Both the position numbers and the translations under genes were made by a program. From an archaeon (GTDB lineage: Archaea; Nanobdellota; Nanobdellia; Pacearchaeales; GW2011-AR1), in contig DAOVXQ010000001.1 of assembly GCA_030636025.1 (NCBI GenBank), positions 24,791 to 88,790 on the forward strand: a DNA stretch of 64,000 nucleotides, in the 5' to 3' direction. Shown piece after piece: positions 6,101 through 39,843 of this stretch; the first letter of the stretch is position 1, and each line of letters begins with the position of its first letter. The notes under the pieces were generated by a model, which saw only the letters and a program-made list of their open reading frames with translations, made no database searches and was not told where the DNA came from.

Positions 6101-6150
6101 ATATAATTTTCCTAGCGAAGATTTATAAATCGTCTCAGATTCTCACTTAA

Positions 6151-11138: not shown

Positions 11139-11139
11139 T

Positions 11140-11748: not shown

Positions 11749-11757
11749 TTTTATTAA

Positions 11758-12714
11758 TTATTTTATATTTTTTTGATACCAATTCATTGTTTTTCTTATT
11801 CCTTCTTCTAAACTAACTTTGGGTGTCCATCCAAAATCATTTTTAGCTTTAGTGCAATCAAAACATAAACTCGTTTTTATTGTCGGTTTTGAAGTATCAT
11901 ATTCTATATTAATATTCTTGCCTGAAATGTCAATCATTTTTTTAACAAGATTACTAACAGAAACAGCTTCTCCAGAACCAACATTATATAACTCATAACC
12001 TGTTTGTTGATCATCTACAGCCATACTAACAAAATCAACTAAGTCATCAATATACAAAAAATCTCTTTTTTCTTTTCCATCTCCCCAAACAACTAATTTT
12101 TCATTTTTATTATTCATAACTTTAGTAATTGTTGCTCCAAAAACATGAGATTTTTCTAAGTCAAATTTATCATAAGGCCCATAAACATTTGCCTGCCTTA
12201 TTACAGTATGTTTGGTTTTTCCTAATCTTGAAAAAAATTCACACATCTTTTCAATATAAATTTTAGTATGTCCAACCCCAAAATAATTTGGAAGAAGTTC
12301 CTGGTTGGGATTAAAATCAGTCTCCTTTAAAGGTTTTTCACTTGGTTGATACATCACAGTAGAACTTGGAAAAATAAAATGTTCAACATTATTATCAAAT
12401 GCAGACCTTAATAATAATGAGTTCATTACCGCATTATCTGTTACATGGATATAAGGTTTTGTAACAATATCTTTTGAACCAGAAGTTGTAGAAGCATCTT
12501 GGATAATTATATTTTTTCCAGCAACAATCCCTTGAACATCTTTAGAATCAAGAAGATTTGCATGAACCATCTCAACATTATCTATTTTTGGAGGTTTAGA
12601 TTTAAAATAAGTCCCAGTAACTTCAAAATTTTCTCTTTTTCCAAATCTTTCTGCAACATTTCTGCCAATAAATCCTGTTGCACCACAAACTAAAACCTTT
12701 TTTTTACTATTCAT
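11758..12714 (-). CDS. NAD-dependent epimerase/dehydratase (GDP-fucose-synthase/UDP-Glc-4-epimerase-like SDR)
   Basis: VLVCGATGFIGRNV Rossmann motif; extended SDR, 318 aa. Confidence 0.65.
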   Translation of the reverse strand: MNSKKKVLVCGATGFIGRNVAERFGKRENFEVTGTYFKSKPPKIDNVEMVHANLLDSKDVQGIVAGKNIIIQDASTTSGSKDIVTKPYIHVTDNAVMNSLLLRSAFDNNVEHFIFPSSTVMYQPSEKPLKETDFNPNQELLPNYFGVGHTKIYIEKMCEFFSRLGKTKHTVIRQANVYGPYDKFDLEKSHVFGATITKVMNNKNEKLVVWGDGKEKRDFLYIDDLVDFVSMAVDDQQTGYELYNVGSGEAVSVSNLVKKMIDISGKNINIEYDTSKPTIKTSLCFDCTKAKNDFGWTPKVSLEEGIRKTMNWYQKNIK

Positions 12715-14186: not shown

Positions 14187-14281
14187 TTTATTATCCCTTT
14201 TTTAATATAATTCATAATCATTTTTAATAATTCTTATTTTTAAAGATTTAGTAGTTTAAAAATATAGTATTCCTATATTAG

Positions 14282-14905
14282 TTAAAAACTTTTACTTTCT
14301 CCTCCATCTACAGTAATGCATGAACCATTAATGTGTTTGGCCTTATTTGAACATAAAAAAGTAACTATTCCTGCAACATCTTCTGGCTTTCCTTTTCCAG
14401 AGTAATTTTTTGTTCCAATATCTATTGGTCCTGGTGCTATAGTATTAAAAGTAATTCCTTCATATTTCCCAGCAAGGCATTTCATTAAACTTATTTCTGC
14501 AGCTTTAGCCATATTAAACCAGGGTTTTCCTCCAGATTCTTTTCCATAAATAGAAGCGATAGTAATTACTCTCCCCCATTTTTGCTTTTTCATATAGGGA
14601 AGACATTTCATAGTTAGTTTTCTGGCAACTCCTGCATTTTTTTCATAAACTTCTTCCCATTCATCAAATTTTTCATAATTTTCACTTCCCCATCTTCCAC
14701 CACCTCCAACATTGTTTATTAAAATATCATAGTTTCCATTAATCTTGGTTAAATCATCTTTTAAAACATCTACTATAATTCCTTTAGTTCTTGAACAAAT
14801 ATCAACTAAGCACCCCTCTTTTTTTAGTTCTTCTGCTATTGCTTTTCCAATTCCCTTGCTTCCACCAGTAACAAGCGCATATTTTCCTTCAAGATTTAAT
14901 TCCAT
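14282..14905 (-). CDS. Short-chain dehydrogenase/reductase (classical SDR)
   Basis: ALVTGGSKGIGKAIA glycine-rich motif. 207 aa. Confidence 0.7.
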   Translation of the reverse strand: MELNLEGKYALVTGGSKGIGKAIAEELKKEGCLVDICSRTKGIIVDVLKDDLTKINGNYDILINNVGGGGRWGSENYEKFDEWEEVYEKNAGVARKLTMKCLPYMKKQKWGRVITIASIYGKESGGKPWFNMAKAAEISLMKCLAGKYEGITFNTIAPGPIDIGTKNYSGKGKPEDVAGIVTFLCSNKAKHINGSCITVDGGESKSF

Positions 14906-20620: not shown

Positions 20621-21124
20621 TTAAGAAAAAATTTTTTCCTTATTGTAATTTATAAACTCTTTAACAAAATCACTTAAATTTATGTTTCTTAATTCATCTA
20701 ATCTAAAATAGCCTGCTTTTTGGCCCTCTGTTATTTTTTTATTTATATGATCTATATTCTCAAGTATCCTGCCTTTGAAAAATTGGATTTCTTCCAAAGG
20801 ACCTTTAATTCTTTTTAATTCATATGGGCCATTTATCCAGTAGTTAGCTATCCTCAAATTTCTTATTTCAACAAATCCTTTTCCTATCTGTTTTATAGAT
20901 TTAATTAGACAGCCAGGCAATTCTTCATCCAGTTCCCTTTCAATTCCTGCAAAAATATTTTCTCCTTTTTCTATGCCCCCTCCAAATAAATCCCAAGTCC
21001 CAGGTTCAATTACTTTAGGTTTATTGTCTCTTAATTGAAGTAGAAATTGGTTTTTGTTATTTAGTAATATTATTTTAGCTACATTTTTCATTTTACTCTT
21101 TGTCATATAAATCTCTCCTTTCAA
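20621..21124 (-). CDS. NUDIX hydrolase
   Basis: GGGIEKGENIFAGIERELDEELPG Nudix box. Confidence 0.6.
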   Translation of the reverse strand: MKGEIYMTKSKMKNVAKIILLNNKNQFLLQLRDNKPKVIEPGTWDLFGGGIEKGENIFAGIERELDEELPGCLIKSIKQIGKGFVEIRNLRIANYWINGPYELKRIKGPLEEIQFFKGRILENIDHINKKITEGQKAGYFRLDELRNINLSDFVKEFINYNKEKIFS

Positions 21125-21617
21125 TAATCATACAAGGTTCTTTAAATTTTTTTGCATACTCATAGGAATGTTTTAATTCATAAGTATTTTTAGGATCATA
21201 AACTGGAAAATTAAATCTTGCTTTAAAAAAATCTGAAAAATCTTGTGAATGTTGTGGTCCGGGATTAATTGGATTCATTGAGCCTATTACTGCCCTTATT
21301 ATCATTGGGGCATTATATTGTTGATTTGATAAAATAGGCAATTTATCTAAATAATTAACTAAGGAATCTAAAGCATTTAACATAAAATCATGCCTCTCAA
21401 AAATTAAAACAGGTTTAAATCCTTCTATAGCCATCCCAGTTGCTAAACCTGTCATTAAATTTTCTGCCACAGGGGATTCTAAAATTTTTGATTTTGGAAT
21501 ATCTTTTAATGAACCATATCCTTTTGAACCATGTTTTAGATTATATCCAATAAAAATTGCTTTTTCGTCCTTAGCTATTTCTTCCATCGAATTTTTTATA
21601 ATATCTTTATATTTCAT
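21093..21617 (-). CDS. Truncated E1-beta-like TPP-enzyme subunit, paralog of 10581-11138
   Basis: ESPVAENLMTGLATGMAIEGFKPVL. 174 aa. Confidence 0.55.
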   Translation of the reverse strand: MKYKDIIKNSMEEIAKDEKAIFIGYNLKHGSKGYGSLKDIPKSKILESPVAENLMTGLATGMAIEGFKPVLIFERHDFMLNALDSLVNYLDKLPILSNQQYNAPMIIRAVIGSMNPINPGPQHSQDFSDFFKARFNFPVYDPKNTYELKHSYEYAKKFKEPCMIIERRDLYDKE

Positions 21618-22241
21618 TTACATTGTACTCCCTATTTTACCTTTTGAAAAATTAACAAATTTATCTGTTCCTGCATGAAGTGTTGTTGGATTATAGTGGT
21701 ATCTTCTTACACAAGATGGCCAATTTATCTGACAAGTTCCATATCTTTCAATTTTAGTGGTTTCAACAGACCTATCATTATCCTCAATAATAAATGTGCA
21801 GGGAAGATTATGTCCTTCAACATATCTTACTGCTTCATAAAAATGCCCCTCATCCTCTGCACCATCTCCTACAAAACACCAAACTTTACTTTCACTTTTC
21901 TTTCTTTTTAATGCCCAAGCAATTCCTGTTGCAACTGCAGGAGTTCCAGCAACAATTGCAGAAGAAAGAAAGTTTATGGCTTTATTATGGGGATGCATAC
22001 TTTCTCCTTTTAATATCTTTTCTTCTAATTCTTTTGGAGACCCTCCTTTTAATAAATAATGATAATGTGAACGATGTGTAGAAAAAACATAATCTTCTGG
22101 TTGAATTTCTTTAAATATTTCTATTAATTGATTTTCATTACCTCCAGAAAGGTGAATATAATAAGGTATTTTTGCATCTTCCCATAATGTTTTTATATGT
22201 TTTTCAAAATCGATTAATTCTTGTTTAGTGACGTGTTCCAT
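21618..22241 (-). CDS. Truncated E1-alpha-like TPP-binding subunit, paralog of 11140-11748
   Basis: HLSGGNENQLIEIF, ESMHPH (compare GGSMH), CFVGDGAEDEGHFYEA...IIEDNDRS. Confidence 0.6.
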   Translation of the reverse strand: MEHVTKQELIDFEKHIKTLWEDAKIPYYIHLSGGNENQLIEIFKEIQPEDYVFSTHRSHYHYLLKGGSPKELEEKILKGESMHPHNKAINFLSSAIVAGTPAVATGIAWALKRKKSESKVWCFVGDGAEDEGHFYEAVRYVEGHNLPCTFIIEDNDRSVETTKIERYGTCQINWPSCVRRYHYNPTTLHAGTDKFVNFSKGKIGSTM

Positions 22242-22251: not shown

Positions 22252-23376
22252 TTAGATAAAATTAATGTGTTGAGGGGGTTTGCCCTCAGGTTTTGTTATG
22301 TTTAAATTATTTTCTTTTATGTCCCAAAGATATTCATTAACTTTATGTTGAAGGCAAAGGGTTCCACACATTTTTTTTGCATCAAATTTAGATGAAGAAA
22401 TTAAATCCATAACTTTATCATATCTTTTACTTTGCCAAATATCTTTAAAAGAATTTTCAGCGATATTTCCAATGTGATATTTTTTATATTTATCATTAAA
22501 TAACATCCCACAAGGAGCAACTAATCCAGAACCAGACATTTGCAATATAAATCGAGGACCATAGCATTTAGAATATTTTCTTTCCCCTCCACTCATTATT
22601 TTAGACCATTTTGCTTTAACAAGATAATCTTTTGTAGAATTAGATTCTGCTACCTGTAATATCTCCTTAAGTTCATAATATTTATTATAATCAATACCCA
22701 AGGTCCCATCTTCATCATCGCTACAATGTTTAATAACTAAATAATCTACTTTTAACTCTTTTCCTAAATTAACAAGAGGGATTATTTGATCTTTAAATTC
22801 TGGCATTAGGACCATTTGTAATCCTATTGTTGTCTCTAATTTTTTCTCTTTTTTTAATTTTGTAGTTTCTTTTACAATGTTTTTAAATTTATAAAAATCA
22901 TTTTCCCTACAACCATGAATTTCTTTATATCTTTGTGGCTCCCCGGCAGAAACATTAAACCTTAAATAAGTAAGTGCAGGAAGAATCTCCTCTAATTTTT
23001 CTTTTTTTAAAAGAACCCCATTTGTTCCTAATGCCATATCAAGCCCATTTTTTTTACCATGAATTATTGCATCATAAAGATAAGGAGAACAAGTACTTTC
23101 ACCATCACTAACAAAACTTATTGCTTTTACACCAATCTCTGCAACATCATCTAAAAATCTAAAAATTACATCCCTAGTCATTCTTTTTTCATCATTTGCC
23201 TGTAATTGCCCATAACAATAAACACATTTATAATTGCATTTTCGGGTTAATGCACAATCAATTGTTATTGGGGCTATTTTTTCTCCTTTTAACCAAGCAT
23301 TAACCCTATCTGAATGCCAGGCTAATTTTTGCCCATCTAATATTAATCCTTTTTCTTGTTCAAATTTATTTTCCAT
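22252..23376 (-). CDS. Radical SAM/SPASM-domain enzyme
   Basis: TRKCNYKCVYC. The C-terminus has PCGMLF...GNIAENSFKDIW...C..LC. Confidence 0.6.
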   Translation of the reverse strand: MENKFEQEKGLILDGQKLAWHSDRVNAWLKGEKIAPITIDCALTRKCNYKCVYCYGQLQANDEKRMTRDVIFRFLDDVAEIGVKAISFVSDGESTCSPYLYDAIIHGKKNGLDMALGTNGVLLKKEKLEEILPALTYLRFNVSAGEPQRYKEIHGCRENDFYKFKNIVKETTKLKKEKKLETTIGLQMVLMPEFKDQIIPLVNLGKELKVDYLVIKHCSDDEDGTLGIDYNKYYELKEILQVAESNSTKDYLVKAKWSKIMSGGERKYSKCYGPRFILQMSGSGLVAPCGMLFNDKYKKYHIGNIAENSFKDIWQSKRYDKVMDLISSSKFDAKKMCGTLCLQHKVNEYLWDIKENNLNITKPEGKPPQHINFI

Positions 23377-28418: not shown

Positions 28419-29087
28419 ATGAAAAAACAAATAATCCATTTTAATAATTTTAATCTTGTAAGGGCAGATAAGAATTGTAATGTTCCTTTAATTTCTGATA
28501 AAGAGAAAGAAAAATATATCAAAAAATTCAAACAAAATAATTGGCATAATGGGGAATTATCCACTGCAGATAATTATGATTTTAGGGACGATAAAATATA
28601 CTATGGGAAATCAAATTTTTACGATTTTCTTATATGCCATGAAATAAAACAAAATATTTCACCAATTATTTCTTTAAATGCAATTATAGAGGTAGGAGAT
28701 AATATTATTTTAATAAAACGTCCAAATAATGTTTCAAGTTATGCAGGGTGGTGGGATTTTCCTGCAGGAATGGTTTATTTCAAGGACAATTCACTAAAAG
28801 AAAGATTATATAATAGAATAATGGATGATACAAAAATAAAAAAACACGAACTAGACATAAAAAAAAGAATCGCTCCTGCGATTACATTAGATGGGATGGC
28901 TCTTAATTTTTTTTATGTTTTAAAATATAAAAAATCAAAAACAGAGTTAGAATCTTTTTTCAAAGATAATTTTAAAGAAGATAGGCCAATTATTCTAAAA
29001 AAATCAAAAATCAATGAATTTTTGAATAATAATCCTGTAGTTTTTTCAGAAATTTTAGATAAAGAATTTATTTCTCACATAGAATAA
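28419..29087 (+). CDS. Hypothetical protein (possible degenerate Nudix-fold)
   Basis: IIEVGDNIILIKRP...WDFPAGMV loosely resembles a Nudix fold but lacks the canonical Nudix box. Confidence 0.25.
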   Translation: MKKQIIHFNNFNLVRADKNCNVPLISDKEKEKYIKKFKQNNWHNGELSTADNYDFRDDKIYYGKSNFYDFLICHEIKQNISPIISLNAIIEVGDNIILIKRPNNVSSYAGWWDFPAGMVYFKDNSLKERLYNRIMDDTKIKKHELDIKKRIAPAITLDGMALNFFYVLKYKKSKTELESFFKDNFKEDRPIILKKSKINEFLNNNPVVFSEILDKEFISHIE

Positions 29088-30013
29088 TCTTTCCTTGCCC
29101 ATTCAATTGTTTGTTTTAATCCTTCTTTTAAACAATATTTTGGAGTCCAATCTAAAAATTTTTTAGTTTTTTTCATATCTGCGACCCAAATCTTAGAATC
29201 ATAATCTCTTTTTTTATATGCCCCCAAATTAATTTTACTTTTTGAATTTGTAATTTCTATCACATTTTTAACAACTTCTAAAACTCTTGTCTGAATCCCA
29301 ACCCCCACATTAAAAATTTCCCCCCTAAATTCATTTGCTTTTTCAATAGAGTTTAAATACAAATCCATAACATCTTCAATAAAAACAAAATCCCGCCCAA
29401 AGTCTTGATTTACAATATCAATATCCTGATGTTTCAATGCTTTTGAAATAACTGTAGGTATTAATCTATTTTTATAATCAAAAGGCCCATAAGGAGAAAA
29501 TAATCTTAAGGAAACTATTGGTTTGTTTTTTGTTTTAACCATCATTTGCCCATATTTTGTAGCAGCATTTTTTGTTATTCCATACATATTTATTGGAATA
29601 CAGACATCATCTTCTTTCATTGGTTTATTTTTTATACCATATTCCGAAGAACTCCCAGTATTGACAAAACAAGAATAATCCACAGAATTACAAGAATCAA
29701 TTAAGTTTTTAGTGCCTATAAAATTTGTTTTGAATAAATTTTCATCACTGGCCTGAACCCCCCCATATATTCCTTGTGTTGCTAAATGAAAAATAATATT
29801 TGGTTTAATTTCTTTGACAATGTAAGATAATTTTTCTTTCTCTTTTAAATCTACAACATATTCATTTAATTTTGATAAAATATTTTCTAATCTCCATTTA
29901 TTAGATGTTTTTCGAGTTAAAATATGAATCTCATAATCATTAATTAATTTTCTCACAAGATTTGAACCAACAAATCCTGTTGCTCCCGTAACAAGTATTC
30001 TTTCAATTTTCAT
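29075..30013 (-). CDS. NAD-dependent epimerase/dehydratase (extended SDR)
   Basis: ILVTGATGFVGSNLVRKL. 312 aa. Stop and start overlap the neighbouring genes. Confidence 0.65.
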   Translation of the reverse strand: MKIERILVTGATGFVGSNLVRKLINDYEIHILTRKTSNKWRLENILSKLNEYVVDLKEKEKLSYIVKEIKPNIIFHLATQGIYGGVQASDENLFKTNFIGTKNLIDSCNSVDYSCFVNTGSSSEYGIKNKPMKEDDVCIPINMYGITKNAATKYGQMMVKTKNKPIVSLRLFSPYGPFDYKNRLIPTVISKALKHQDIDIVNQDFGRDFVFIEDVMDLYLNSIEKANEFRGEIFNVGVGIQTRVLEVVKNVIEITNSKSKINLGAYKKRDYDSKIWVADMKKTKKFLDWTPKYCLKEGLKQTIEWARKDYSM

Positions 30014-31773
30014 ATTTTCTTGATTGGTGAGACAACCATATTTTCCCTAAATTCTTTCCTATCTAACAATGGTGAAGAATCTTCAATTGGTTTTCCAAAT
30101 TCAAGTTTAGGAATAACCTTAGCATTAGGTTCTAATTCTAAATTACATAATGCTGGGCCCTTGTAATTAAGAACATCATCAATTTTGTTTAAAGCTAGAT
30201 GATTTTCTATTTGAAAAGTTTTTATTCCATATGCCTGAGCTACTTTTGATAAATCAGTATTCCCAAGGCCTCCATCAATGGAACTGGCCTTATAATTAGA
30301 TTTAAACCAAACATCTTGAAATTGTTTAATCATACCATATCCGTGATTATTAAATAAAAAAATTTTTATTGGAAGGTTATGTTTTACAATGGTTTCAAGT
30401 TCATTAATATTCATTTTTAATCCTCCATCACCGGTAATACAAATCACAGGTTTTTTATTCATAGCAAAACAAGCACCAATACTTGCAGGCAAAGCATACC
30501 CCATTGAAGCATGCCCTAAATCAGAAAATAATCTTTGATCCTTCTTGATTCTAAATCCTTGCATTGTCCACGACAAATTATTTCCAGTATCAACAGCAAT
30601 TATATCTCCTTCCTTTAACTTATTTGAAAGAACATCAATAAAAACATAGGGATTTACTTTATCTTTTTGTTCAAAATATTCTGGAAGACAAGCAGGATAC
30701 TTCTCTTTCCAAATTTCAATTTTATTTTTCCAAAAAGATAAATTTTGTGTTTCAATTTTTTTATCTTTAATATTATTAAGAAAATCCCTCATACCATAAT
30801 TTAAACTTACATCAATTTTTATTCCGCGGTTTTTATATAATTCTTTATAGTTAATATCTAAAATTACTTTTTTCGCTCCTCTTGCAAAAGTTTTTGGGCA
30901 ATTTCCAATCTGTCTTGTATCTAATCTTGAGCCAAGACTAATAATCAAATCAGAATTTTGAACTGCAAAATTTCCAGGCCTAGTTGACGAAACCCCAAAC
31001 TCCCCGATTCTTAAAGGATGGTCATATTGAAGTATATCTATCCCCCCCCAAGATAATGCAACAGGAATCCCTAATCTTTCAATAAGATTTTTTGTTTCTG
31101 TTTCAGCATCTCCAATTTTAACTCCTGCACCCAAAATAACAACAGGCCTTTCTGCTTTTTCAATCAAATCAATTGTTTGATTTACTTTTTTATCCAACAA
31201 AGAATAATCAATCTCTTTTTTCTTAGGAATATAGTTCCTTAATTTATCAGACTTAATTTCTGCTAATTGAACATCAATTGGCAAATCTAATAAAACAGGC
31301 CCAGGCCTTCCAGATTTAGCAATATGAATTGCCTTATCTAAAAAATATTTTATTTTTTCAGGATTATCAACTTGGTAAGAAAATTTAGTAATTGGTTTAA
31401 CCATATCAACAATATTTGTTTCCTGAAATCCTCTCTGCCTTGGGCCTTTTTTCCCTGCGAATTCTTTTGTATTTACTTGTCCAGTAATATATAATGTAGG
31501 AATAGAATCAAAATATGCACAAGCAATTCCGGTTATAAGATTAGTTGCACCAGGTCCGCTAGTTGCAATCGCAACCCCAATGTTTTTTGTAATTCTTGAA
31601 TAGGCTTCTGCAGCCATAGCTGCTCCTTGCTCTTGAGTAGTGCAAATATATTCCAAATTTTTATCTTTACCCAAAGAATTTACTAACGGAGAAATAAATC
31701 CACCTATAACCAAAAAGGCATGATTAACATTTTTTTCTTTTAAATAGCCCACAATATAATCTGAAGTTTTCAT
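30010..31773 (-). CDS. TPP-dependent enzyme of the acetolactate-synthase-large-subunit family (YerE-like candidate branched-chain-sugar synthase)
   Basis: 587 aa. N-terminal pyrimidine domain GAAMAAEAYSRITKNIGVAIATSGPGATNL. Central and C-terminal TPP domain CITGDGGLKMN...NN with a GDG...N motif. Confidence 0.65.
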   Translation of the reverse strand: MKTSDYIVGYLKEKNVNHAFLVIGGFISPLVNSLGKDKNLEYICTTQEQGAAMAAEAYSRITKNIGVAIATSGPGATNLITGIACAYFDSIPTLYITGQVNTKEFAGKKGPRQRGFQETNIVDMVKPITKFSYQVDNPEKIKYFLDKAIHIAKSGRPGPVLLDLPIDVQLAEIKSDKLRNYIPKKKEIDYSLLDKKVNQTIDLIEKAERPVVILGAGVKIGDAETETKNLIERLGIPVALSWGGIDILQYDHPLRIGEFGVSSTRPGNFAVQNSDLIISLGSRLDTRQIGNCPKTFARGAKKVILDINYKELYKNRGIKIDVSLNYGMRDFLNNIKDKKIETQNLSFWKNKIEIWKEKYPACLPEYFEQKDKVNPYVFIDVLSNKLKEGDIIAVDTGNNLSWTMQGFRIKKDQRLFSDLGHASMGYALPASIGACFAMNKKPVICITGDGGLKMNINELETIVKHNLPIKIFLFNNHGYGMIKQFQDVWFKSNYKASSIDGGLGNTDLSKVAQAYGIKTFQIENHLALNKIDDVLNYKGPALCNLELEPNAKVIPKLEFGKPIEDSSPLLDRKEFRENMVVSPIKKI

Positions 31774-31805
31774 CTAAAATCTCCCATTAAATCGCATTTA
31801 TAAAA

Positions 31806-32471
31806 TTAATTATACTTTAGAAATCTCCAAACCATCCAGATAATTCTTTTTGGAGTCATTTTACTAATTCCATCAGACCTTTCATAATGATTCACCCTAA
31901 TTCCTTTAATCTCATAATCTTTGTCTTTTATTTTTCTTAATAAATCAATATTAAATAGCCATCCTGTTTGAAGGTTTGTAATGCCCTCATAAATTTCCCT
32001 TTTAAAATAAACAGGATATCCATTAATGTCTTTTAAGTGTACTCTAAATCTTATTTGACTCCATACATTAAATATTTTTGAAATAATATCTCTCCCCACC
32101 CCATCCTTCCTTCTTTTTCTTATGGCTTTTATAACCCCTGAATTTCCCCTTTCAGAGTACACCTTAACAATATCTTTTACACTAACTTCTCCATCCCCAC
32201 AAGTAAAACCTAAAATTTTTCCTTTAGCTACATCCAATCCAGTCATTATTGCCCCCCCATAATCTTTATTTTTTTTATTGTGCATTACTTTAATCCTTGT
32301 TTCTTTTAATGAATTTAATTCGTCAGAGGTAGAGTCTTTACTACAATCATCAACTAAAATAATCTCATAATTAATTCCTTTTAATTCTTTTTTTAATTTT
32401 TTTACAAAAGGTATTGGACATCCAGCATCATTATAAAAAGGGATAACAATACTTAATTCAGGTTTTTTCAT
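31806..32471 (-). CDS. Short GT2 glycosyltransferase (GtrB/Dol-P-sugar-synthase-like)
   Basis: LSIVIPFYNDAG...ILVDDCSKDST. 221 aa. Confidence 0.55.
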   Translation of the reverse strand: MKKPELSIVIPFYNDAGCPIPFVKKLKKELKGINYEIILVDDCSKDSTSDELNSLKETRIKVMHNKKNKDYGGAIMTGLDVAKGKILGFTCGDGEVSVKDIVKVYSERGNSGVIKAIRKRRKDGVGRDIISKIFNVWSQIRFRVHLKDINGYPVYFKREIYEGITNLQTGWLFNIDLLRKIKDKDYEIKGIRVNHYERSDGISKMTPKRIIWMVWRFLKYN

Positions 32472-32582
32472 ATTATTTTTCTAATTTGGGCATTTATAAG
32501 ATTTATGTAATTCTTAATAAGTTAACTAATAAATAGATTTAAGGACATAAATCCTTTTAAACCAATTCAAGTATATTTTTTT

Positions 32583-33869
32583 ATGAAAAAAGATTTGTTA
32601 GAGGGGGTTCATAACGCCATACAAGAATTAGTAAAAATAAATCCCCCATCTTTTTTAAAGACTTCTTTTATCAGCACAGGTCTAGCTATTTATGGTGCCG
32701 AGGAAATTAATGCGATTGTAGATACAGTATTAGAAGGAAAATTAGGATTAGCAACAAAAGGATATGAATTTGAAAAAGAATTTTCAAAATATATTGGTGC
32801 AAAAAAAACCTTGCTTGTAAATTCAGGTTCATCAGCGAGTTTGTTAGCTATGGAGGGAGTTAAAAAATATTTTGATATTAACGAAGGAGAAATAATAACA
32901 ACTGCTTGCGGATTTCCAACAACGTTAAATCCAATAATTCAATTAGGATTTAAACCAGTTTTTGTTGATGTTGACGAAACTTATAATATGACTCCCGAAA
33001 ATATTGAAAATGCATTAAGTAATAAAACCAAGGGAATTGTTTTCGCCCATACTCTTGGAAATCCTGCAAAAATAGATGAAATAATGAATATTGCTAAGAA
33101 AAATAATCTCTTTGTTTTAGAGGATTGTTGTGATGCATATGGTTCAAAATACAACGGGAAAATGTGCGGTTCATTTGGAACCGTTTCGACATTTAGTTTT
33201 TATCCAGCACACAATATAACCCTTGCAGGAGAGGGGGGGGCAGTAGCTTCAGATAATTTAGAAATTGATAAAATCATGAAAAGTTTTAGAGATTGGGGAA
33301 GAGATTGTTTTTGCAATGCAGGACAAGACAATAAATGTGGGAAAAGATTTGATTTTAAGATTGGGGACATCCCCTATGACCATAAATATGTTTATTCTCA
33401 GATAGGATATAATTTAAAACCAACTGAAATACAAGCAGCAATGGGGATAGTGCAATTAAAAAAAATCAAAGGATTTAATAAAAAAAGAAAACAAAATTAT
33501 CAAGATTTTAAAGAAATTTTTTCAAATTTAGAACATCATTTTGAACTTCCAAAAATAAATCCTAAAGCAGACCCTGTTTTTTTTGGGTTGCCTTTGACAA
33601 TTAAAAATCCAAAAATTCAAAGGCAAGATTTAGTCAAATTCTTAAATCAAAATGGAATTGGAACGCGATATGTTTTTGGAGGAAATTTACTTTACCATCC
33701 TGCATATAAAAATATAAACCATAAAATATGTGGGGAATTAGAACAGACAGACAAAATTTTTAAAAATTCACTTTGGATGGGAATTCATCCAGGAATAAAT
33801 AAAGAAAAAATAGATTATATTGGCTCTAAGTTCAATGAGTATATAAAATCAATAGACAAAGCCCGGTGA
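32583..33869 (+). CDS. NDP-4-keto-6-deoxyhexose 3-dehydratase (RfbH/DdhC E1 or ColD family of the DegT aminotransferase fold)
   Basis: NSGSSASLLAMEG, CGFPTTLNPI, HTLGNP, EDCCDA, FSFYPAHNIT, RDWGRDCFCNAGQDNKCGKRF, DHKYVYSQIGYNLKPTE, GTRYVFGGN. By recollection these match E1 block for block. Confidence 0.7.
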   Translation: MKKDLLEGVHNAIQELVKINPPSFLKTSFISTGLAIYGAEEINAIVDTVLEGKLGLATKGYEFEKEFSKYIGAKKTLLVNSGSSASLLAMEGVKKYFDINEGEIITTACGFPTTLNPIIQLGFKPVFVDVDETYNMTPENIENALSNKTKGIVFAHTLGNPAKIDEIMNIAKKNNLFVLEDCCDAYGSKYNGKMCGSFGTVSTFSFYPAHNITLAGEGGAVASDNLEIDKIMKSFRDWGRDCFCNAGQDNKCGKRFDFKIGDIPYDHKYVYSQIGYNLKPTEIQAAMGIVQLKKIKGFNKKRKQNYQDFKEIFSNLEHHFELPKINPKADPVFFGLPLTIKNPKIQRQDLVKFLNQNGIGTRYVFGGNLLYHPAYKNINHKICGELEQTDKIFKNSLWMGIHPGINKEKIDYIGSKFNEYIKSIDKAR

Positions 33870-33912
33870 TATTTATAAAAACAATTAAAAACTTGTTTTT
33901 TCTTATTTTGTT

Positions 33913-35421
33913 ATGGAAGATTTGGATAATATAATTGAAAAAAGGAAGGAAAAAACCCTTAACTGGGCTAAAAATCCCTATAATTTTACATTAATTTTAA
34001 TTCTCCTTTTTACAATAATAATTAGATTATATTATTTTATTTTAATTAAGGGTCAGGCATTATGGTGGGATGAGGCAGAATATATGTTGGTTGCAAAATC
34101 TTTTTCTGGAATTGCCCAGCATGTAAATTATACTTTTGACCCAGTAAGGCAAGTTTTAAATCCATTTTTAATGTCTTTATCTTTCAGGATTATTGGTGCA
34201 AGTGAATTCTTGCCAAGAGTATTTTTATTAATCTTATCAATAGCATCTGTTTTAGGTATGTATTATCTTGGAAAAGAGTTATACGACAAAAAAGTAGGAT
34301 TATTGTCGTCCTTTTTTATGTCCTTTTTTTGGTTAAATTTATTTTTTAGTTATCGGATTATAGTGGACATACATTCATTAACTTTTTTTATTTTTTCTGC
34401 ATTTTTCTTTTACAAATATTTTAAAACTGGATCTAATAAGGCACTTTATTTGGCAACGATTTTAATTTCAGTAGGAACTTTATTTAAATTATCCACTGCA
34501 TTTTTATTGCCTGCAATTTTATTATATCTTTTGATAACCGAAAAATTAAATTTCTTAAGAAAAAAAGAAATATGGTTCGCTACCTTAATCTTCACATTAA
34601 TACAGGTTCCATATATTATTTGGGGATACATCAAATTTAATGGATTTATTTTTACCCAGGCCTCGGGAGTAGTTTCTCCAGATAATCCAATAATACATGG
34701 AACAAGAATGTTTATTAGTTATTTGAATTTATTTCCAACTTATCTTTCATGGCTTTTTGTAATTATTTTTATCTTAGGATTATTTTCAATGTATAAATTA
34801 TTTTTAGGATTAGATATTTTAATAAAAAAAGGAGACAAAAATCTAAAAAGAGATTTATATTTATTATTAATCTTATTAATGCCAATAATTTTTGTTAGTG
34901 TAATGATAAATCATGCAGAAAACAGATATATAATTAATATTTTTCCAGCAGTGTTTATAATTTCTAGTGCATTTATTTTTTCAGTTTTTAAGTTTATTAA
35001 AAAGAAAAACAAAGTTTTCGCAATTATCTTTATTATTTTATTATTGGGATTTGCAATGAATTATCAAATAAAATATGCAGACAATATGATTAAAAATAAA
35101 AAAGACTCATTTATGCAGGTAAAAAGGGCAGGATTATGGTTAAAAGAAAATACTGAGGTTACAGATGTAATTGTATCCCATAGCCCCCCTCAGATGAAAC
35201 ATTATGCAGAAAGAGAAATATTTGTTTTTCCTCAGAAAAAAGAAGAATTTGAATCAAGGTTATCCTCAGATACCAACCTCAAATTTTTTGTAATTTCTGT
35301 ATTTGAGAATGCTGCAGAATGGTCATATTCTTATCCTGCAGAAAATAATTTAACCCCTGTTAAGACATATTATCTAGATTCCTCTAACCAGCAACCCGCA
35401 TTAATTATTTATGAATTATGA
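33913..35421 (+). CDS. GT-C fold glycosyltransferase (GT39/GT83, ArnT/PMT-like)
   Basis: Polytopic membrane protein, 502 aa. N-terminal ...RLYYF..IKGQALWWDEAEY is the ArnT-like loop motif. Confidence 0.55.
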   Translation: MEDLDNIIEKRKEKTLNWAKNPYNFTLILILLFTIIIRLYYFILIKGQALWWDEAEYMLVAKSFSGIAQHVNYTFDPVRQVLNPFLMSLSFRIIGASEFLPRVFLLILSIASVLGMYYLGKELYDKKVGLLSSFFMSFFWLNLFFSYRIIVDIHSLTFFIFSAFFFYKYFKTGSNKALYLATILISVGTLFKLSTAFLLPAILLYLLITEKLNFLRKKEIWFATLIFTLIQVPYIIWGYIKFNGFIFTQASGVVSPDNPIIHGTRMFISYLNLFPTYLSWLFVIIFILGLFSMYKLFLGLDILIKKGDKNLKRDLYLLLILLMPIIFVSVMINHAENRYIINIFPAVFIISSAFIFSVFKFIKKKNKVFAIIFIILLLGFAMNYQIKYADNMIKNKKDSFMQVKRAGLWLKENTEVTDVIVSHSPPQMKHYAEREIFVFPQKKEEFESRLSSDTNLKFFVISVFENAAEWSYSYPAENNLTPVKTYYLDSSNQQPALIIYEL

Positions 35422-35840
35422 TTTATTGGCTTATCTTTTTTAAAAACCCAAAGTAATGAACCTAAAAAACTAATTGGAATGCTCATTGCAATCCCTCCAA
35501 TAGCCGCAATATTTTCTTGAAGCATTCCTGTCCCAAAAAGATTTTTTAAGATTAATGCAGTCATAAAATTAACACTTATTGCAATGATATAAACAATAAA
35601 AAAACGCACTATTTGTTTTTTAACTGGATGCCCTCTTGCAGAAAAAGTAACATTCCGGTTCATAGAAAAATTATAAATTATTGAAATAAATGTTCCAAAA
35701 AATAATGCTAAAATAAAACTAACTTCTATCCAAAATCTAAAAACATTAAAAAATATCATATGAACTAATGCTGAACTTCCTCCAACAATACTAAATATTA
35801 TAAATTTAATAAAATGATTTTTAATAAATTGGATTATCAT
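35409..35840 (-). CDS. GtrA-family small membrane protein (candidate lipid-linked sugar flippase)
   Basis: 143 aa with four TM segments. FIIFSIVGGSSALVHMIFFNV is GtrA-like. Confidence 0.55.
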   Translation of the reverse strand: MIIQFIKNHFIKFIIFSIVGGSSALVHMIFFNVFRFWIEVSFILALFFGTFISIIYNFSMNRNVTFSARGHPVKKQIVRFFIVYIIAISVNFMTALILKNLFGTGMLQENIAAIGGIAMSIPISFLGSLLWVFKKDKPINHNS

Positions 35841-36853
35841 GAAAACAAACTCTCCTTAAAAATTATCAAAGCTAACAAACAAATTATAATTTGCATTATA
35901 AAAATAAAATAAATTACATCGGTTTCATAAACCTTTTTCTTAAATTTTTTAAGTATGAATAATGATAAATGAGTCAGGCTATAAATTTTGTTATAAGGCA
36001 TTTCTAAACTTCCATCTTTATTTGGATTTGCAAAAGAATATTTTTTTAATTTACCTCTTAATTTTAATATTGTTTCTAAGATATAAAGAATAAAAACAAA
36101 AACAGCAATTTTTTCAAAATTACCTAAGATTGCCATGATAGCAATTAAGGCCCCAATAGCCCAGGTTAAAGAATCTCCTGGAAAAACTTTCGCAGGATAT
36201 TTGTTATATAAATAAAAAACAATTAATGAAGATACCATTATTAATCCCATTAATGAAATCCATGAAGAACCAGTAATATATGCAATTAATGAAAGAAATG
36301 TTAGAATAATGATCCCCTGCCCTGCTTCAAGCCCATTAAACCCTGCTAAAAAATTATAAGTGATTGTCGCTCCAGCAATTCCTAATGGAATAAGAATTAA
36401 GGGATATAGAAATCCTAATTCAATGGGGCCTAAAAAAATGCAGTTAATGGTTGTGGTCCCAGCATTAATTACTGCCAAAGGAATTGATGCCATGAATGCT
36501 AAAAAAATTCTAAACCTTACAGATAATCCTTCGTGTTTCCAACCTAATAAATCATCAATTAAACCAATAATTGCTAAAATTAGAATAACACTTATTAATG
36601 CAAAAATTTCAAGAGTAATCCCATTAACAGAATCTATAAAAAATGTCCTAATTGCGATATAAGACAAGACACCAATTATAAATGATAAAACTACAATAAC
36701 TCCTCCAGAAGAAACAACATTTTTGGGATGCCCTGGTTTATTCATATCTTCCCATAAAAGATTAGCTTGTTTACATTTTTTAATCCATTTAGGGAGAACT
36801 AATAAGGTTAATATTAGACTTATAAAAATCGAAATAAATAATATGGCTTCCAT
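35837..36853 (-). CDS. MraY/WecA-family (Glycos_transf_4) polyprenyl-phosphate sugar-1-phosphate transferase, AglH-like
   Basis: Polytopic protein. IIGLIDDLLGW is the family's conserved DD-loop. Confidence 0.6.
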   Translation of the reverse strand: MEAILFISIFISLILTLLVLPKWIKKCKQANLLWEDMNKPGHPKNVVSSGGVIVVLSFIIGVLSYIAIRTFFIDSVNGITLEIFALISVILILAIIGLIDDLLGWKHEGLSVRFRIFLAFMASIPLAVINAGTTTINCIFLGPIELGFLYPLILIPLGIAGATITYNFLAGFNGLEAGQGIIILTFLSLIAYITGSSWISLMGLIMVSSLIVFYLYNKYPAKVFPGDSLTWAIGALIAIMAILGNFEKIAVFVFILYILETILKLRGKLKKYSFANPNKDGSLEMPYNKIYSLTHLSLFILKKFKKKVYETDVIYFIFIMQIIICLLALIIFKESLFS

Positions 36854-36895: not shown

Positions 36896-39694
36896 TTATA
36901 GTTTCCAATCCAAATATTTAGTAGCATCCTTATCTATATATTTTTCTTTAATCTTTTCCTTCCCTGTATATTCAATTTCCCAGATTTTTATTGGTCCCTG
37001 AATTCCTTGATAATAAACAAAGTCAGGAAGATTCATTCCTTGTGCATTTAAATCACCTATAATAAAATTAGGCTCAGTATGAATTAATTTAAAATTAGGA
37101 AAATTATCCAACGGGTCATTTAAAATGTACTTTTGCACCATCATTCCTCTCATTAACCTTGTACTTAAAAACATTGCAGCCCCAATAGAATTTTGAGTTA
37201 ACCCTTGATTGTTTTGATTTATTCTTGGAAAGATATACGCGGCCCCCTCAATTCCAGAACCAAAATCAATAAATTCATTGCCAATAGAAGCATACCTTAG
37301 ATTTTGTTGATATTGCTTGCCATTGTAAACTAAAATAATATACGGCTGTTGAAATGAAATAGCTTCAGTATCTTCTTTTATTGCGGGAAGGATTATTGCA
37401 CCAATACCTGTTTGTTGACCTGGCAACAAAACTTCTTTTCCATTTTCATTTATTATTAGGTCTTCATCTAATGCAATTCCTCCCGGATAAACATAAAGTG
37501 TTTTGTTTTGAGTTTCTTGAGTTTGCTTTTCATCTAATAAAAATGTTCCAATCCAAGAATATTTATCGTAATTTTCATCACTCCCAATACTTGAATAGGC
37601 ACCATATTTTCCAATATCCGAAGAATCAATCAAAAAGTGAGTTGTATTATGATTATATAAAAATTCTAGAGCATCCTCTTGATTATCTCCTGTTAAAACC
37701 TTCCTGCCCATTAAATAATTCCAATAAGTTATTGCATTTCCTCCATCTAAAACAGTAGCCCTATTTCCAATACTTTGCACCCAATACCCATAATCCCACC
37801 AATGACCAAATACTGCATCCTGAGGGGTATCTGTCCTAACCCAATCCATTGCTTTTTGCCATTGCTGATTATAATGGGAAGGAACCATATTATATGCCTG
37901 AATCTTATTTGTTTGATAAAAAGTCCAAAAACTAAATAAACTAGATAATAAAACTAAAATTACAAAAACACCAAGGATAATTTTAATTGTCTCATCTTTA
38001 GTTTTCATAAATTTTTTAATAGAGCCTACAATTAAATAACCAACAAAAATTGAAGCAATAGGCCCTAAAACCATAATTAATCTTACTCCTCCTCTCGCAG
38101 TAAAAACCGTAAATGAAAATAAAACTAACAACAATAAATATTCAAATTTTATTTTTTCAAAGCTTTTATCCTGTTTTTTATAATGCTGAATATAATAATA
38201 GATTAAACCACCAATCAATAATGATGAAGTGCCATAGTAAACAAATTTACTAACAAAATTTTCTCCATTTAAAATACTTGAAGCAGAGTATCTTGAGAAA
38301 ATTAATCCAGATAAAAATAATACGTAAAATCCTGTTAAAATCCAAGCATCTCTATTTTTTATCTTATTAATCATTTTTTTAAACAAAATTACCGAACCAA
38401 TAAAAAACATCCAAAACATTAAGGGAATATTTTTTACAAAAGGTCCAAAACTTGCCCCCCATTCAGTAAAGTAAGGTTGCCTGTTTTCAGCAACAGTAGT
38501 ACTCCATCTACCAGTAATTGGTTTAAAGATTATTCGATGAATTACTTTTACTTTTTCAATAAGAAATCCCGGACCAAAAATTATGGAAGATAAAATAATT
38601 AATAAAATCATTGCAATTATAATTGATATAATATTCTTCGGAAGGTTTATTTTTTCCAAAAATTTATTTTTTGATATTTTTGTATTCCAAATTAGAATGT
38701 GGATTAAAAAAATAAATAAAACTAAAAAGGAAAGACCCGTGTTTAATGAAGTTAACATCCCTTTTAATGTAAATCTATTAGAAAAAATTAACATCATCCC
38801 AAAAGAAAACAAAACCCACAAAGAATAAATAATAAACTCTTTTTTCTTAATTTTATTCAACAAAAAAGCAATTAAACAAGTAATAGATATGGGAATGAAT
38901 AAATAAATAACTAATCCAGAAATCAGCCCCATAAATGCAGTAGTAATTCCCGCCAAAACCCCAAAAATTATTGCAATTTTTAAATTTTTAGATTTCCAAG
39001 CTTTCAAAAATAAATAAAATGTAAGAAACATAAAGAAGAAAGCAGCAGATTCTTTTTCAGGAATTCCTGCAATAGTTCTCGATAAAAAAACTGGAATTAC
39101 AATCATAAAAAAAGTTGAAATTAATGCAATAATGTTTCCTTTAATCTTGCTTTTTTTGGATTTTCTAACAAAAATTTCTCTAACAAAAAGAAAAAATGCT
39201 AGAATTGTTAATGCAAACATTATAACTGGAAAAATTGCTCCTGAAAATTCAATAGGATAATCTCCAAATAAATTAAAAAAATAATGAGTATATGCAATCA
39301 TATAGGGGAGTAGCATAGTTTCTATCGTATTGTCAAATCCAAGTGGAACATTTCTCATAGTATCTATTTTAGGGATTGAACCTGTTTCTACAATACTTTT
39401 AGCTGTCCTTAAAAACAACCACGGGTCTAAATCAGGACCTAATGTCCATGTATTTGTTGTGATGTCCCACAAGCCAGGATTCCCTCCATGGTCGTGCATT
39501 GGCATACTTCGAATATAAACTCCTAAAATAATCGCAATAATCAAAAATCCAATAACCCAAACCCAGGGTTTTTTAACAAATTTCAAAAATTTTTCTTTTC
39601 TTTCCTGAATCAAATCCTCTGTTTTTTCAATATTACTTTCTGTAGAAATATCTTTAACAATCCCAAAATCATTATTTATATTATTTTCTTCCAT
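36896..39694 (-). CDS. aglB: Archaeal oligosaccharyltransferase AglB (STT3 family)
   Basis: 932 aa with an N-terminal multi-TM domain. WWDYGYW matches the WWDYG catalytic motif. Confidence 0.85.
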   Translation of the reverse strand: MEENNINNDFGIVKDISTESNIEKTEDLIQERKEKFLKFVKKPWVWVIGFLIIAIILGVYIRSMPMHDHGGNPGLWDITTNTWTLGPDLDPWLFLRTAKSIVETGSIPKIDTMRNVPLGFDNTIETMLLPYMIAYTHYFFNLFGDYPIEFSGAIFPVIMFALTILAFFLFVREIFVRKSKKSKIKGNIIALISTFFMIVIPVFLSRTIAGIPEKESAAFFFMFLTFYLFLKAWKSKNLKIAIIFGVLAGITTAFMGLISGLVIYLFIPISITCLIAFLLNKIKKKEFIIYSLWVLFSFGMMLIFSNRFTLKGMLTSLNTGLSFLVLFIFLIHILIWNTKISKNKFLEKINLPKNIISIIIAMILLIILSSIIFGPGFLIEKVKVIHRIIFKPITGRWSTTVAENRQPYFTEWGASFGPFVKNIPLMFWMFFIGSVILFKKMINKIKNRDAWILTGFYVLFLSGLIFSRYSASSILNGENFVSKFVYYGTSSLLIGGLIYYYIQHYKKQDKSFEKIKFEYLLLLVLFSFTVFTARGGVRLIMVLGPIASIFVGYLIVGSIKKFMKTKDETIKIILGVFVILVLLSSLFSFWTFYQTNKIQAYNMVPSHYNQQWQKAMDWVRTDTPQDAVFGHWWDYGYWVQSIGNRATVLDGGNAITYWNYLMGRKVLTGDNQEDALEFLYNHNTTHFLIDSSDIGKYGAYSSIGSDENYDKYSWIGTFLLDEKQTQETQNKTLYVYPGGIALDEDLIINENGKEVLLPGQQTGIGAIILPAIKEDTEAISFQQPYIILVYNGKQYQQNLRYASIGNEFIDFGSGIEGAAYIFPRINQNNQGLTQNSIGAAMFLSTRLMRGMMVQKYILNDPLDNFPNFKLIHTEPNFIIGDLNAQGMNLPDFVYYQGIQGPIKIWEIEYTGKEKIKEKYIDKDATKYLDWKL

Positions 39695-39696: not shown

Positions 39697-39843
39697 TTAA
39701 TTCTCCAACAACCTTCCAACTTCCTCTAACAACTCAGAAGCATTTTTTTCTTTTATAAGAGTTTCCATGCCACAATACGGACAATCCTTAGGATTCTCAG
39801 TTTCAAATCTATAATTACAGTTTGTGCATATCCACTTTTTCAT
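39697..39843 (-). CDS. Small zinc-ribbon protein (48 aa, two CxxC pairs), not in the supplied ORF track
   Basis: Reverse-strand ORF MKKWICTNCNYRFETENPKDCPYCGMETLIKEKNASELLEEVGRLLEN. It ends 2 nt before the aglB start. Confidence 0.35.
   Translation of the reverse strand: MKKWICTNCNYRFETENPKDCPYCGMETLIKEKNASELLEEVGRLLEN

Follow-up and report, generated by a model that had tools for sequence, protein, structure and literature searches.

A putative yersiniose-like pathway for a branched 3,6-dideoxyhexose in the glycosylation island of a DPANN-type archaeon

Might an archaeon use the chemistry of bacterial yersiniose biosynthesis to place a branched 3,6-dideoxy sugar on its cell surface? The question is raised by a stretch of 64,000 nucleotides from a member of the Pacearchaeales (contig DAOVXQ010000001.1; G+C about 29%), hereinafter the window, to which all coordinates refer and in which positions 71 to about 39700 are read as a single glycosylation island. 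In yersiniose biosynthesis, YerE and then YerF act on CDP-3,6-dideoxy-4-keto-glucose (PMC9306805, PMC12247030). An initial annotation of the window had pointed to a comparable set of genes, namely a 3-dehydratase of the RfbH/DdhC type, an acetolactate-synthase-like thiamine diphosphate (ThDP) enzyme within 1 kb of it, and an extended short-chain dehydrogenase/reductase (SDR) taken for a reductase or epimerase. All three open reading frames (ORFs) are present at the positions it gave, coding for 428, 587 and 312 aa, respectively. The yersiniose-like reading drawn from them finds support in their E1, YerE-like and SDR signatures, in conserved synteny, and in the cytidylyltransferase and 4,6-dehydratase genes that accompany them in relatives. 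We posit that they belong to a module of six genes (29075-35840), which probably makes a C4-acyl-branched 3,6-dideoxyhexose and installs it on the surface of this DPANN-type archaeon. The genes for a family 2 glycosyltransferase (GT2), the ThDP enzyme and the SDR lie on the minus strand, those for the 3-dehydratase and a glycosyltransferase of the GT-C type run divergently on the plus strand, and a GtrA gene adjoins the latter:

29075-30013, minus strand: extended SDR of 312 aa, proposed YerF-like reductase
30010-31773, minus strand: ThDP enzyme of 587 aa, predicted YerE-like carboligase
31806-32471, minus strand: GT2 of 221 aa (PF00535), leading the GT2-ThDP-SDR unit
32472-32582, no strand: divergent AT-rich intergenic region of 111 bp with TTTATAA-type boxes read from the sequence, putative promoter region
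32583-33869, plus strand: predicted E1/RfbH/DdhC-type 3-dehydrase of 428 aa, dependent on pyridoxamine 5′-phosphate (PMP) and a [2Fe-2S] cluster
33913-35421, plus strand: PMT_2/ArnT-like GT-C of 502 aa (PF13231, 69 bits; PF03901), directly 3′ of the E1-type gene
35409-35840, minus strand: GtrA/DPMS-TM membrane protein of 143 aa (PF04138, 66 bits)

The 428-residue protein is a member of the DegT family (PF01041, 296 bits) and exceeds the cut-off of 423 bits of the NCBIfam RfbH equivalog (PRK15407/NF011936) with a score of 505, the runner-up being PseC with 178. Compared to solved structures, it scores 393 bits with the E1 enzyme of Yersinia pseudotuberculosis (3bcx), to which it is 46.8% identical, versus about 160 bits with ColD and no more than 165 with any ColD or sugar aminotransferase. 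Its His210 aligns with His220 of E1 at the position of the lysine that binds pyridoxal 5′-phosphate (PLP) in related enzymes, a column marked by the H220K mutant structure 3bb8, and its Cys183, Cys242, Cys244 and Cys252 align column for column with C193, C251, C253 and C261 of E1. The [2Fe-2S] motif of E1, which we take to be C-X57-C-X-C-X7-C in the numbering of Agnihotri et al. 2004, agrees with the positions in the 3bcx sequence; the window protein has the C-X-C-X7-C part exactly and X58 in place of X57 in the first interval. We predict that 32583-33869 is a PMP-dependent Fe-S 3-dehydrase of the E1 type, in line with the class assigned to it earlier, and the presence of His210 and all four cysteines rules out its placement among the generic DegT aminotransferases with a PLP lysine.

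The 587-residue protein, encoded 0.8 kb from the E1-type gene, shows the PYR, central and PP domains of the ThDP-dependent decarboxylases (PF02776, PF00205 and PF02775; TPP_enzyme N, M and C). It keeps the catalytic Glu48 and the ThDP-binding motif GDG448...NN476. With its top NCBIfam match, the large subunit of acetohydroxyacid synthase (AHAS; TIGR00118), it scores 422 bits where the cut-off is 538, and the other AHAS models remain far under their cut-offs. In the PDB, 5ahk, presumably PpYerE of Pseudomonas protegens, scores 362 bits and 8rph 339 bits, while true AHAS structures score at most 273 bits. The 8rph chain, which displays the unusual CDG motif of JanthE, is that characterised YerE-like enzyme (PMC12188165), and, among the YerE-like enzymes, those with a solved structure are PpYerE and JanthE (PMC12247030). 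Between residues 98 and 127, the window protein, 5ahk and 8rph have in common a five-residue insertion after a GQV motif, which is found in neither the Escherichia coli nor the Arabidopsis AHAS. A neighbour-joining tree with 200 bootstraps was computed from 26 sequences, namely the window protein, 21 YerE-like proteins from fetched loci (most of them in deoxysugar clusters), the two solved enzymes and the two AHAS of E. coli and Arabidopsis. It splits both AHAS from all YerE-like sequences in 200 of 200 replicates and places the window protein, with 100% support, inside a DPANN clade whose genes lie in deoxysugar clusters. Neither ilvN nor ilvC adjoins the gene, the neighbours of which are instead the GT2 and the overlapping SDR gene. 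We predict that the protein is a YerE-like ThDP carboligase that puts an acyl branch on the C4 keto group of a 3,6-dideoxy-4-keto sugar; the comparison with YerE on the one side and AHAS on the other, which the initial annotation had called for, comes out on the side of YerE.

The SDR matches PF01370 with 152 bits without reaching any equivalog cut-off, and its start overlaps the stop codon of the ThDP gene by 4 nt, an arrangement indicative of translational coupling. Its catalytic set is intact, with a GATGFVG nucleotide-binding loop (GxxGxxG, at aa 10), the serine of SSSEYG and the Y144GITK version of the YxxxK motif. Orthologues adjoin the ThDP gene in four related genomic loci, which we designate L005 (60% identity), L030 (62%), L031 (73%) and L008 (37%). 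The protein has SSE instead of the TDE dyad of the RmlB-type 4,6-dehydratases, and its best score with a dehydratase model is 121 bits as compared to a cut-off of 365. The S/T-S-E motif is also found in dehydratases of the GDP-mannose 4,6-dehydratase (GMD) type, and by itself it does not exclude that type; what carries the call, together with the low scores, is that L005 has an orthologue of the SDR plus a separate 4,6-dehydratase. Thus, we reject the SDR as a candidate for the 4,6-dehydratase that is missing from the module. As a YerE-type addition leaves a tertiary alcohol at C4, the only remaining ketone would be that of the branch; hence, the simplest inference is that the SDR acts as a YerF-like reductase of the branch carbonyl.

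The module recurs in relatives. All six of its genes are kept in order in L030 (SDR 62%, ThDP enzyme 74%, GT2 63%, E1-type enzyme 78%, GT-C 55% and GtrA 55% identity), whereas L031 retains four of them (SDR, ThDP enzyme, GT2 and E1). As both hold the same gene order at 74-79% identity, the adjacency of these genes is not due to chance. In the window, all six ORFs are intact and of full length, and this, combined with the preserved order at a protein divergence reflected in identities of 55-79%, suggests that the module is under selection.

The remaining three proteins of the module point to the delivery of its product. The GT2, with orthologues beside the ThDP gene in L030 and L031 (62-63%) and L005 (41%), shows weak NCBIfam matches to ArnC, PpgS and AglJ, and has no membrane segment in its 221 residues. 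The GT-C, with about nine hydrophobic segments, found no sequence match in a search of the PDB; in L030, its place is taken by an orthologue of 55% identity, and the operon of L005 has a PMT_2 gene next to it. The GtrA protein has four hydrophobic segments and likewise a 55% identical orthologue at the same position in L030; we propose that it is a membrane partner or a flippase for a lipid-linked sugar. GT2, GtrA and GT-C together are reminiscent of the layout of the Gtr, ArnC/ArnT and archaeal dolichol-phosphate mannose synthase (DPMS) plus GT-C systems, which is why we propose a lipid-phosphate carrier, and, because the GT2 is devoid of a membrane segment, it would form a split DPMS with the GtrA protein. 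This suggests that the sugar is delivered outside the cell on such a carrier and need not pass through AglB.

Accordingly arranged, the pathway would run as follows. An NDP-4-keto-6-deoxyhexose supplied by enzymes encoded outside the module would be deoxygenated at C3 by the E1-type enzyme by means of PMP and the [2Fe-2S] cluster. As no dedicated E3 reductase is encoded nearby, the electrons would come from a general donor of the ferredoxin type. The YerE-like enzyme would then decarboxylate a 2-oxo acid and attach the resulting acyl group at the C4 ketone, which turns C4 into a tertiary alcohol that bears the acyl branch. Since the module contains no aldolase or other donor-making gene, we take a two-carbon branch from pyruvate as the default, but the branch need not be of two carbons. 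Next, the coupled SDR (29075-30013) would reduce the carbonyl of the branch in the fashion of YerF. The GT2 (31806-32471) and the GtrA protein (35409-35840) would load the sugar on dolichyl phosphate and move it across the membrane, and, at the outer face, the GT-C (33913-35421) would hand it over to a glycan or a protein.

The relatives of the ThDP enzyme offer a precedent for the steps upstream of the module. They are abundant, with 7,980 of 8,000 scored candidates falling at E<=1e-50; the best 120 listed are 51-96% identical to the window protein, and the few of these with a named source come from DPANN or the candidate phyla radiation (CPR). More generally, the named homologues belong to metagenome-assembled genomes (MAGs) of Nanoarchaeota, Woesearchaeota and Pacearchaeota, and it is on these, together with archaeal housekeeping genes, that we base the assignment to DPANN. 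We sampled 21 genomic loci with a ThDP homologue of 34-65% identity, the top one being a Nanoarchaeota MAG at 65%. The sample spans Alpha- and Gammaproteobacteria, Lachnospiraceae, Omnitrophota, Planctomycetota and others, and in about 16 of the 21 loci, E1-like and glucose-1-phosphate cytidylyltransferase-like genes lie at a distance of at most 10 kb, mostly along with a CDP-glucose 4,6-dehydratase-like gene. In the archaeal L005, the ThDP enzyme of which is 75% identical to that of the window, a single operon codes for a glucose-1-phosphate cytidylyltransferase (TIGR02623, 296 bits with a cut-off of 300), a CDP-glucose-4,6-dehydratase-like protein (222 bits), the ThDP enzyme, the SDR and the GT2, with a PMT_2 gene and an RfbH gene (624 bits) within 7 kb. 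In the micrarchaeotal L014, the ThDP enzyme, a cytidylyltransferase (306 bits, cut-off 300), a 4,6-dehydratase and an E1 enzyme are encoded by consecutive genes.

Several members of the family occur as domain fusions. In the protein P0033, a 4,6-dehydratase N-terminus 65% identical to the L005 enzyme is joined to a member of the ThDP family. P0089 (969 aa) combines a YerE-like N-terminal half (54% identical to the window enzyme) with a radical-SAM/SPASM C-terminus that is 67% identical to the product of 22252-23376 in the window, and P0095 shares this architecture. The window gene (minus strand) is situated just upstream of one of two gene pairs for E1alpha/beta-like ThDP proteins (see below), and the fusions suggest that its product acts on a substrate or product of ThDP-dependent branching. 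In P0028 (1015 aa), a class-I (aspartate-type) aminotransferase is fused to a YerE-like enzyme 63% identical to that of the window; the aminotransferase could convert an amino acid into the 2-oxo-acid donor or, alternatively, aminate the carbonyl of the branch. A different version of the association is seen in L006 and L008, where the YerE-like gene sits with a GMD gene (425 bits in L008, cut-off 415) and beside a DegT gene (198-1370 in L006; 11820-13040 in L008). Because these DegT proteins have the histidine but are missing three of the four E1 cysteines, we consider them ColD-like, and the two loci probably represent GDP-linked, Fe-S-independent variants of the branching pathway.

Within the window, the early steps are less well represented. 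As had been noted at the outset, it holds no separate E3 reductase: none of the ORFs of at least 90 aa between 71 and 44308 contains the E3 domains (Fer2, FAD_binding_6 or NAD_binding_1), and no window ORF has the CX4CX2C motif of plant-type 2Fe-2S proteins, the only comparable motifs being CX3CX2C motifs of radical-SAM enzymes. Neither a Fer2/FNR-type ORF nor a CX4CX2C motif was detected in the related loci scanned (L005-L032), be they bacterial or archaeal. As the absence of E3 is thus the rule among the sampled clusters, we regard it as weak evidence against function. A precedent for an E1 enzyme without E3 is SpnQ, the TDP-4-keto-2,6-dideoxyglucose 3-dehydrase of the forosamine pathway of spinosyn, an E1 homologue that reportedly has no dedicated E3 in its cluster and works with general ferredoxin/flavodoxin reductases, although SpnQ is bacterial, dTDP-linked and part of secondary metabolism. 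The gmd-like 4,6-dehydratase that had been placed elsewhere in the island corresponds to an SDR gene of the GDP-sugar type (8858-9832, minus strand; PF16363, 238 bits), whose best PDB matches are the GDP-D-glycero-D-manno-heptose 4,6-dehydratase 7us5 (251 bits) and the Rmd structure 2pk3 (196 bits). It is a possible supplier of the NDP-4-keto-6-deoxy sugar. With the first two steps and E3 lacking from the window, CDP, GDP and dTDP are all possible carriers in the source genome.

A number of points weigh against the proposed branched-sugar pathway. The evidence for it is made up entirely of sequence data. Sugar-1-phosphate cytidylyl- and thymidylyltransferases, as well as 4,6-dehydratases for CDP- or dTDP-glucose, are absent from the window and from 10 kb of its left flank, and the E3 domains are wanting as described; the only 4,6-dehydratase-like gene of the island, 8858-9832, is of the GDP type and forms part of another sub-cluster, at a distance of 23 kb. 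The identity of the 587-residue protein to PpYerE (36%) and JanthE (34%) is only slightly over that to AHAS (31-32%), and, as these values are so close, its assignment rests jointly on scores, insertion, tree and context. The best PDB matches of the GT2, the DPMS of Pyrococcus furiosus (5mlz) and ArnC, extend over the full catalytic domain but are weak (35-37 bits). The SDR, rather than being an orthologue of YerF, could be a C4 ketoreductase of the abequose/paratose synthase type. Finally, the closest relatives of the E1-type enzyme outside the module (57-61% identity, in L032, L034 and L035) are not accompanied by a YerE-like gene, their neighbors being RmlA/RmlB-like in L032 and GMD in L035, with neither in L034. 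Hence, an E1 enzyme of this kind can serve unbranched pathways, and its nucleotide is uncertain.

One alternative is a simpler product: the E1-type enzyme and the SDR might make an unbranched 3,6-dideoxyhexose, the SDR being the C4 ketoreductase, while the ThDP enzyme branches another keto-sugar of the island or some other ketone. The E1 homologues just mentioned do occur with SDRs and without a ThDP enzyme, a CDP-tyvelose 2-epimerase is found among the PDB matches of the window SDR, and the YerE-like genes of L006 and L008 go with ColD-like dehydratases rather than with an Fe-S E1 enzyme. Yet the SDR coupled to E1 in L032, L034 and L035 differs from that of the module, which instead overlaps the stop codon of the ThDP gene and travels with it in L005, L008, L030 and L031; moreover, E1, ThDP enzyme and SDR occur together in three relatives at 60-79% identity. 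We therefore hold an unbranched product to be unlikely. That the module is an incomplete remnant of horizontal transfer, which yields no product as its upstream steps are missing, is suggested by the want of a nucleotidyltransferase, a matching 4,6-dehydratase and E3, both in the 64 kb of the window and in the flank to the left. However, its six full-length ORFs have their catalytic residues, their order is kept in relatives at the identities given above, and the upstream steps, looked for in the window and its left flank, could be encoded on the remainder of the source contig (about 100 kb) or elsewhere in the genome; a remnant is a quite improbable explanation.

The two central enzymes have likewise to be weighed against their better-known homologues. 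If the DegT protein were a reductase-independent 3-dehydratase like ColD, or an aminotransferase, the absence of an E3 gene from the window and the scanned related loci would be accounted for, and the His-bearing, cysteine-poor ColD-like proteins of L006 and L008 show that such enzymes do accompany YerE-like genes. The retention of the four Fe-S cysteines with an exact C-X-C-X7-C and a similarity to E1 far above that to ColD (393 versus about 160 bits) nevertheless lead us to reject an Fe-S-independent dehydratase, and general reductases of the kind ascribed to SpnQ would make a dedicated E3 dispensable; we give this alternative very little credence. It would leave the downstream model unchanged, since either chemistry yields the same 3,6-dideoxy-4-keto product. 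Still harder to entertain is the idea that the 587-residue protein is the large subunit of a housekeeping AHAS lying in the island by accident. It could appeal to the top NCBIfam names, all of which are AHAS large subunits, to the JGI annotation of the homologues as acetolactate synthase and to the 31-32% identity to AHAS. It is contradicted by scores under every AHAS cut-off, by the ranking of the YerE-like structures above AHAS, by the shared insertion and the split in the tree, and by the gene context, which lacks the ilvN and ilvC (ketol-acid reductoisomerase) partners, shows conserved synteny with sugar genes and includes the fusion to a sugar 4,6-dehydratase. We regard it as practically out of the question. 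The branched 3,6-dideoxyhexose is the reading with which we continue.

The nearest known system is the yersiniose A pathway of Y. pseudotuberculosis O:VI (DdhA, DdhB, E1/DdhC, E3/DdhD, YerE and YerF). The module shares with it an E1-type PMP/[2Fe-2S] enzyme with histidine in place of lysine, an AHAS-like ThDP enzyme of the YerE type with an adjoining gene for an NAD(P)-dependent reductase, and the logic of 3-deoxygenation, followed by acyl addition at C4 and reduction of the side chain. It differs in its archaeal host, in the lack of DdhA, DdhB and E3 from the window, in a carrier that could be CDP, GDP or dTDP, in the 36% identity of the ThDP enzyme to PpYerE, and in a destination that is likely a dolichol-linked surface glycan and not an O-antigen. 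The same subclass of ThDP enzyme, paired with a reductase and deoxy-keto-sugar genes, is represented by ErwE/ErwF (erwiniose), MMAR_2332 (caryophyllose), MygE and JanthE. ErwE, MMAR_2332, MygE and JanthE take functionalised C4-C8 2-oxo acids from clustered aldolases, whereas the module of the window has no aldolase; the aminotransferase fusions of the P0028 type among its relatives may point to other donors or to transamination of the branch. ColD, the GDP-4-keto-6-deoxymannose 3-dehydratase of colitose biosynthesis, is likewise a PMP enzyme of the DegT fold with histidine for lysine and a 3,6-dideoxy-4-keto product, but in contrast to the window protein, which scores 393 bits with E1, it does not have the four Fe-S cysteines. 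With the AHAS enzymes IlvB, IlvG and IlvI, the ThDP protein shares the three-domain fold of the decarboxylase superfamily, the catalytic glutamate and the GDG...NN motif, and it departs from them in its sub-cut-off scores, its YerE-type insertion, the lack of a neighboring small subunit or ketol-acid reductoisomerase and its place in a glycosylation operon. On the delivery side, the combination of GT2, GtrA and a PMT_2/ArnT-like GT-C would parallel O-antigen glucosylation by GtrA/GtrB/GtrC, the ArnC/ArnT pair and the archaeal DPMS plus GT-C systems (Haloferax AglS), unlike which the window GT2 is a protein of 221 aa without a membrane segment and with weak matches.

The enzymes and the logic of the pathway are thus known from yersiniose and erwiniose (PMC9306805), and what is new is the archaeal setting. 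In silico predictions have brought up more than 200 YerE-like clusters (PMC12247030). MAGs of bacteria, CPR and DPANN commonly contain the gene combination, the members of which are already annotated there as RfbH and 'thiamine pyrophosphate-binding protein'; hence, the outcome is a refined annotation and not a new mechanism. Among the archaeal N-glycans compiled in a 2024 review (PMC11407970), there is neither a 3,6-dideoxy sugar nor a C-branched one. Our search of the literature found no such sugar for archaea either. To our knowledge, the surface glycans of DPANN archaea, the cells of which live attached to hosts, are essentially uncharacterised. If the proposal is true, yersiniose-type sugar chemistry would extend to archaea, and ThDP-dependent branching of sugars, which has so far been seen only in bacterial O-antigens and actinomycete antibiotics, would have an archaeal version. 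The module would also provide a natural test case for the reduction of an E1-type dehydrase without E3, and a source of YerE-like carboligases that are distinct in thermal behavior and phylogeny; such enzymes are wanted as biocatalysts for tertiary alcohols (PMC12247030).

The island around the module is delimited by the following context genes:

71-1150: Polysacc_synt flippase, at the left end of the island, with SecDF farther to the left
35837-36853, minus strand: phospho-sugar transferase of the Glycos_transf_4 (AglH/GPT-like) family (PF00953, 101 bits)
36896-39694, minus strand: AglB oligosaccharyltransferase of 932 aa (PF02516 STT3, PF21436, TIGR04154), anchoring the island

The last of these, which matches the STT3 profiles, carries WWDYG (residues 632-636) and has 12 hydrophobic segments, forms the right boundary of the island, which is indeed anchored by AglB as first described. 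To its right follow IF-2B, prefoldin, SecY and an archaeal ribosomal-protein operon, and an arrangement of SpoIIM, Glycos_transf_4 and AglB genes recurs in L008. A comparison with Rfam found no RNA gene in the window. Each of the AT-rich spacers of the module, namely 31774-31805 (5′ of the ThDP gene), 32472-32582 and 33870-33912 (5′ of the GT-C gene), contains a ATTTATAA-type box, and these are possible archaeal TATA elements.

Beyond the module, the island shows further unusual features. At 10581-11748 and 21093-22241 (both on the minus strand) lie two pairs of adjacent short genes, each for a protein like the PP domain of the pyruvate dehydrogenase (PDH) E1 alpha subunit (202 and 207 aa) and one like the PYR domain of the E1 beta subunit (185 and 174 aa); a transketolase-C domain is absent. 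In L032, which is from Woesearchaeota, both halves are found in a single protein of 395 aa that is 60% identical to the product of 21618-22241 and 49% identical to that of 21093-21617. Enzymes of this E1alpha/beta type (alphaKADH2) put two-carbon branches on sugars in aldgamycin, kibdelomycin and avilamycin (PMC12247030), and, by analogy with these, the island may contain three ThDP-dependent sugar-branching systems. One of the pairs is part of the operon 8858-14905 (minus strand), which consists of a short-chain SDR, a B12-dependent radical-SAM enzyme, an Fcl-like SDR, the E1alpha/beta-like pair, a WbuC-type cupin, a NUDIX protein, an SDR similar to the GDP-heptose/mannose 4,6-dehydratases and a protein of 166 aa. 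The operon has the appearance of a pathway complete in itself for a further modified 6-deoxy sugar, possibly C-branched or C-methylated. In total, there are five radical-SAM genes, two of them B12-dependent, and three NUDIX or NUDIX-like genes in the island, which may encode several unusual sugars. We tentatively entertain a broader scenario, in which the surface glycoproteins of this DPANN archaeon bear a C-acyl-branched 3,6-dideoxyhexose. An E1-type enzyme that draws on ferredoxin and does without E3 would make this sugar together with the YerE-like enzyme, possibly on GDP instead of CDP as the carrier, and it would be transferred via dolichyl phosphate and the GT-C on the outside; if the two split PDH-E1alpha/beta-type pairs and the five radical-SAM enzymes also act on sugars, the island would then comprise three ThDP-dependent systems for the C-branching of sugars.

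The left sub-cluster (1153-7569) encodes a fusion of an NTP-transferase with a phosphoglycerate mutase, a B12-binding radical-SAM protein, a type I phosphodiesterase and a sulfatase/LtaS-like protein. The fusion protein (2673-4649, 658 aa) joins a sugar- or alcohol-phosphate nucleotidyltransferase to a cofactor-independent phosphoglycerate-mutase domain (TIGR00306, 359 bits, cut-off 320). A role as the hexose-1-phosphate nucleotidyltransferase of the module was considered for it and is unsupported, given the C-terminus that passes the phosphoglycerate-mutase cut-off and the neighbors of the phosphodiesterase/sulfatase type. The sub-cluster may instead add phospho-glycerate or a related phospho-alcohol to the glycan.

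A NUDIX gene is present in each of the three sugar sub-clusters (9813-10214 and 20621-21124 on the minus strand and 28419-29087 on the plus strand). The last of these codes for a protein of 222 aa that has no Pfam match and displays a degenerate NUDIX-like motif, 'GWWDFPAG'; a 34% identical homologue is encoded right after the ColD-like gene of L008. Possible roles for these proteins are the hydrolysis of NDP-sugars, proofreading or the swapping of nucleotides. Immediately upstream of AglB, an ORF of 48 aa (39697-39843, minus strand) contains two CxxC pairs (CTNC...CPYC) like those of zinc ribbons or rubredoxins; on the ENA scaffold ERZ23498475 (91 kb), in which the exact sequence occurs, it is annotated as a gene with a weak RUBY_RBDX match.

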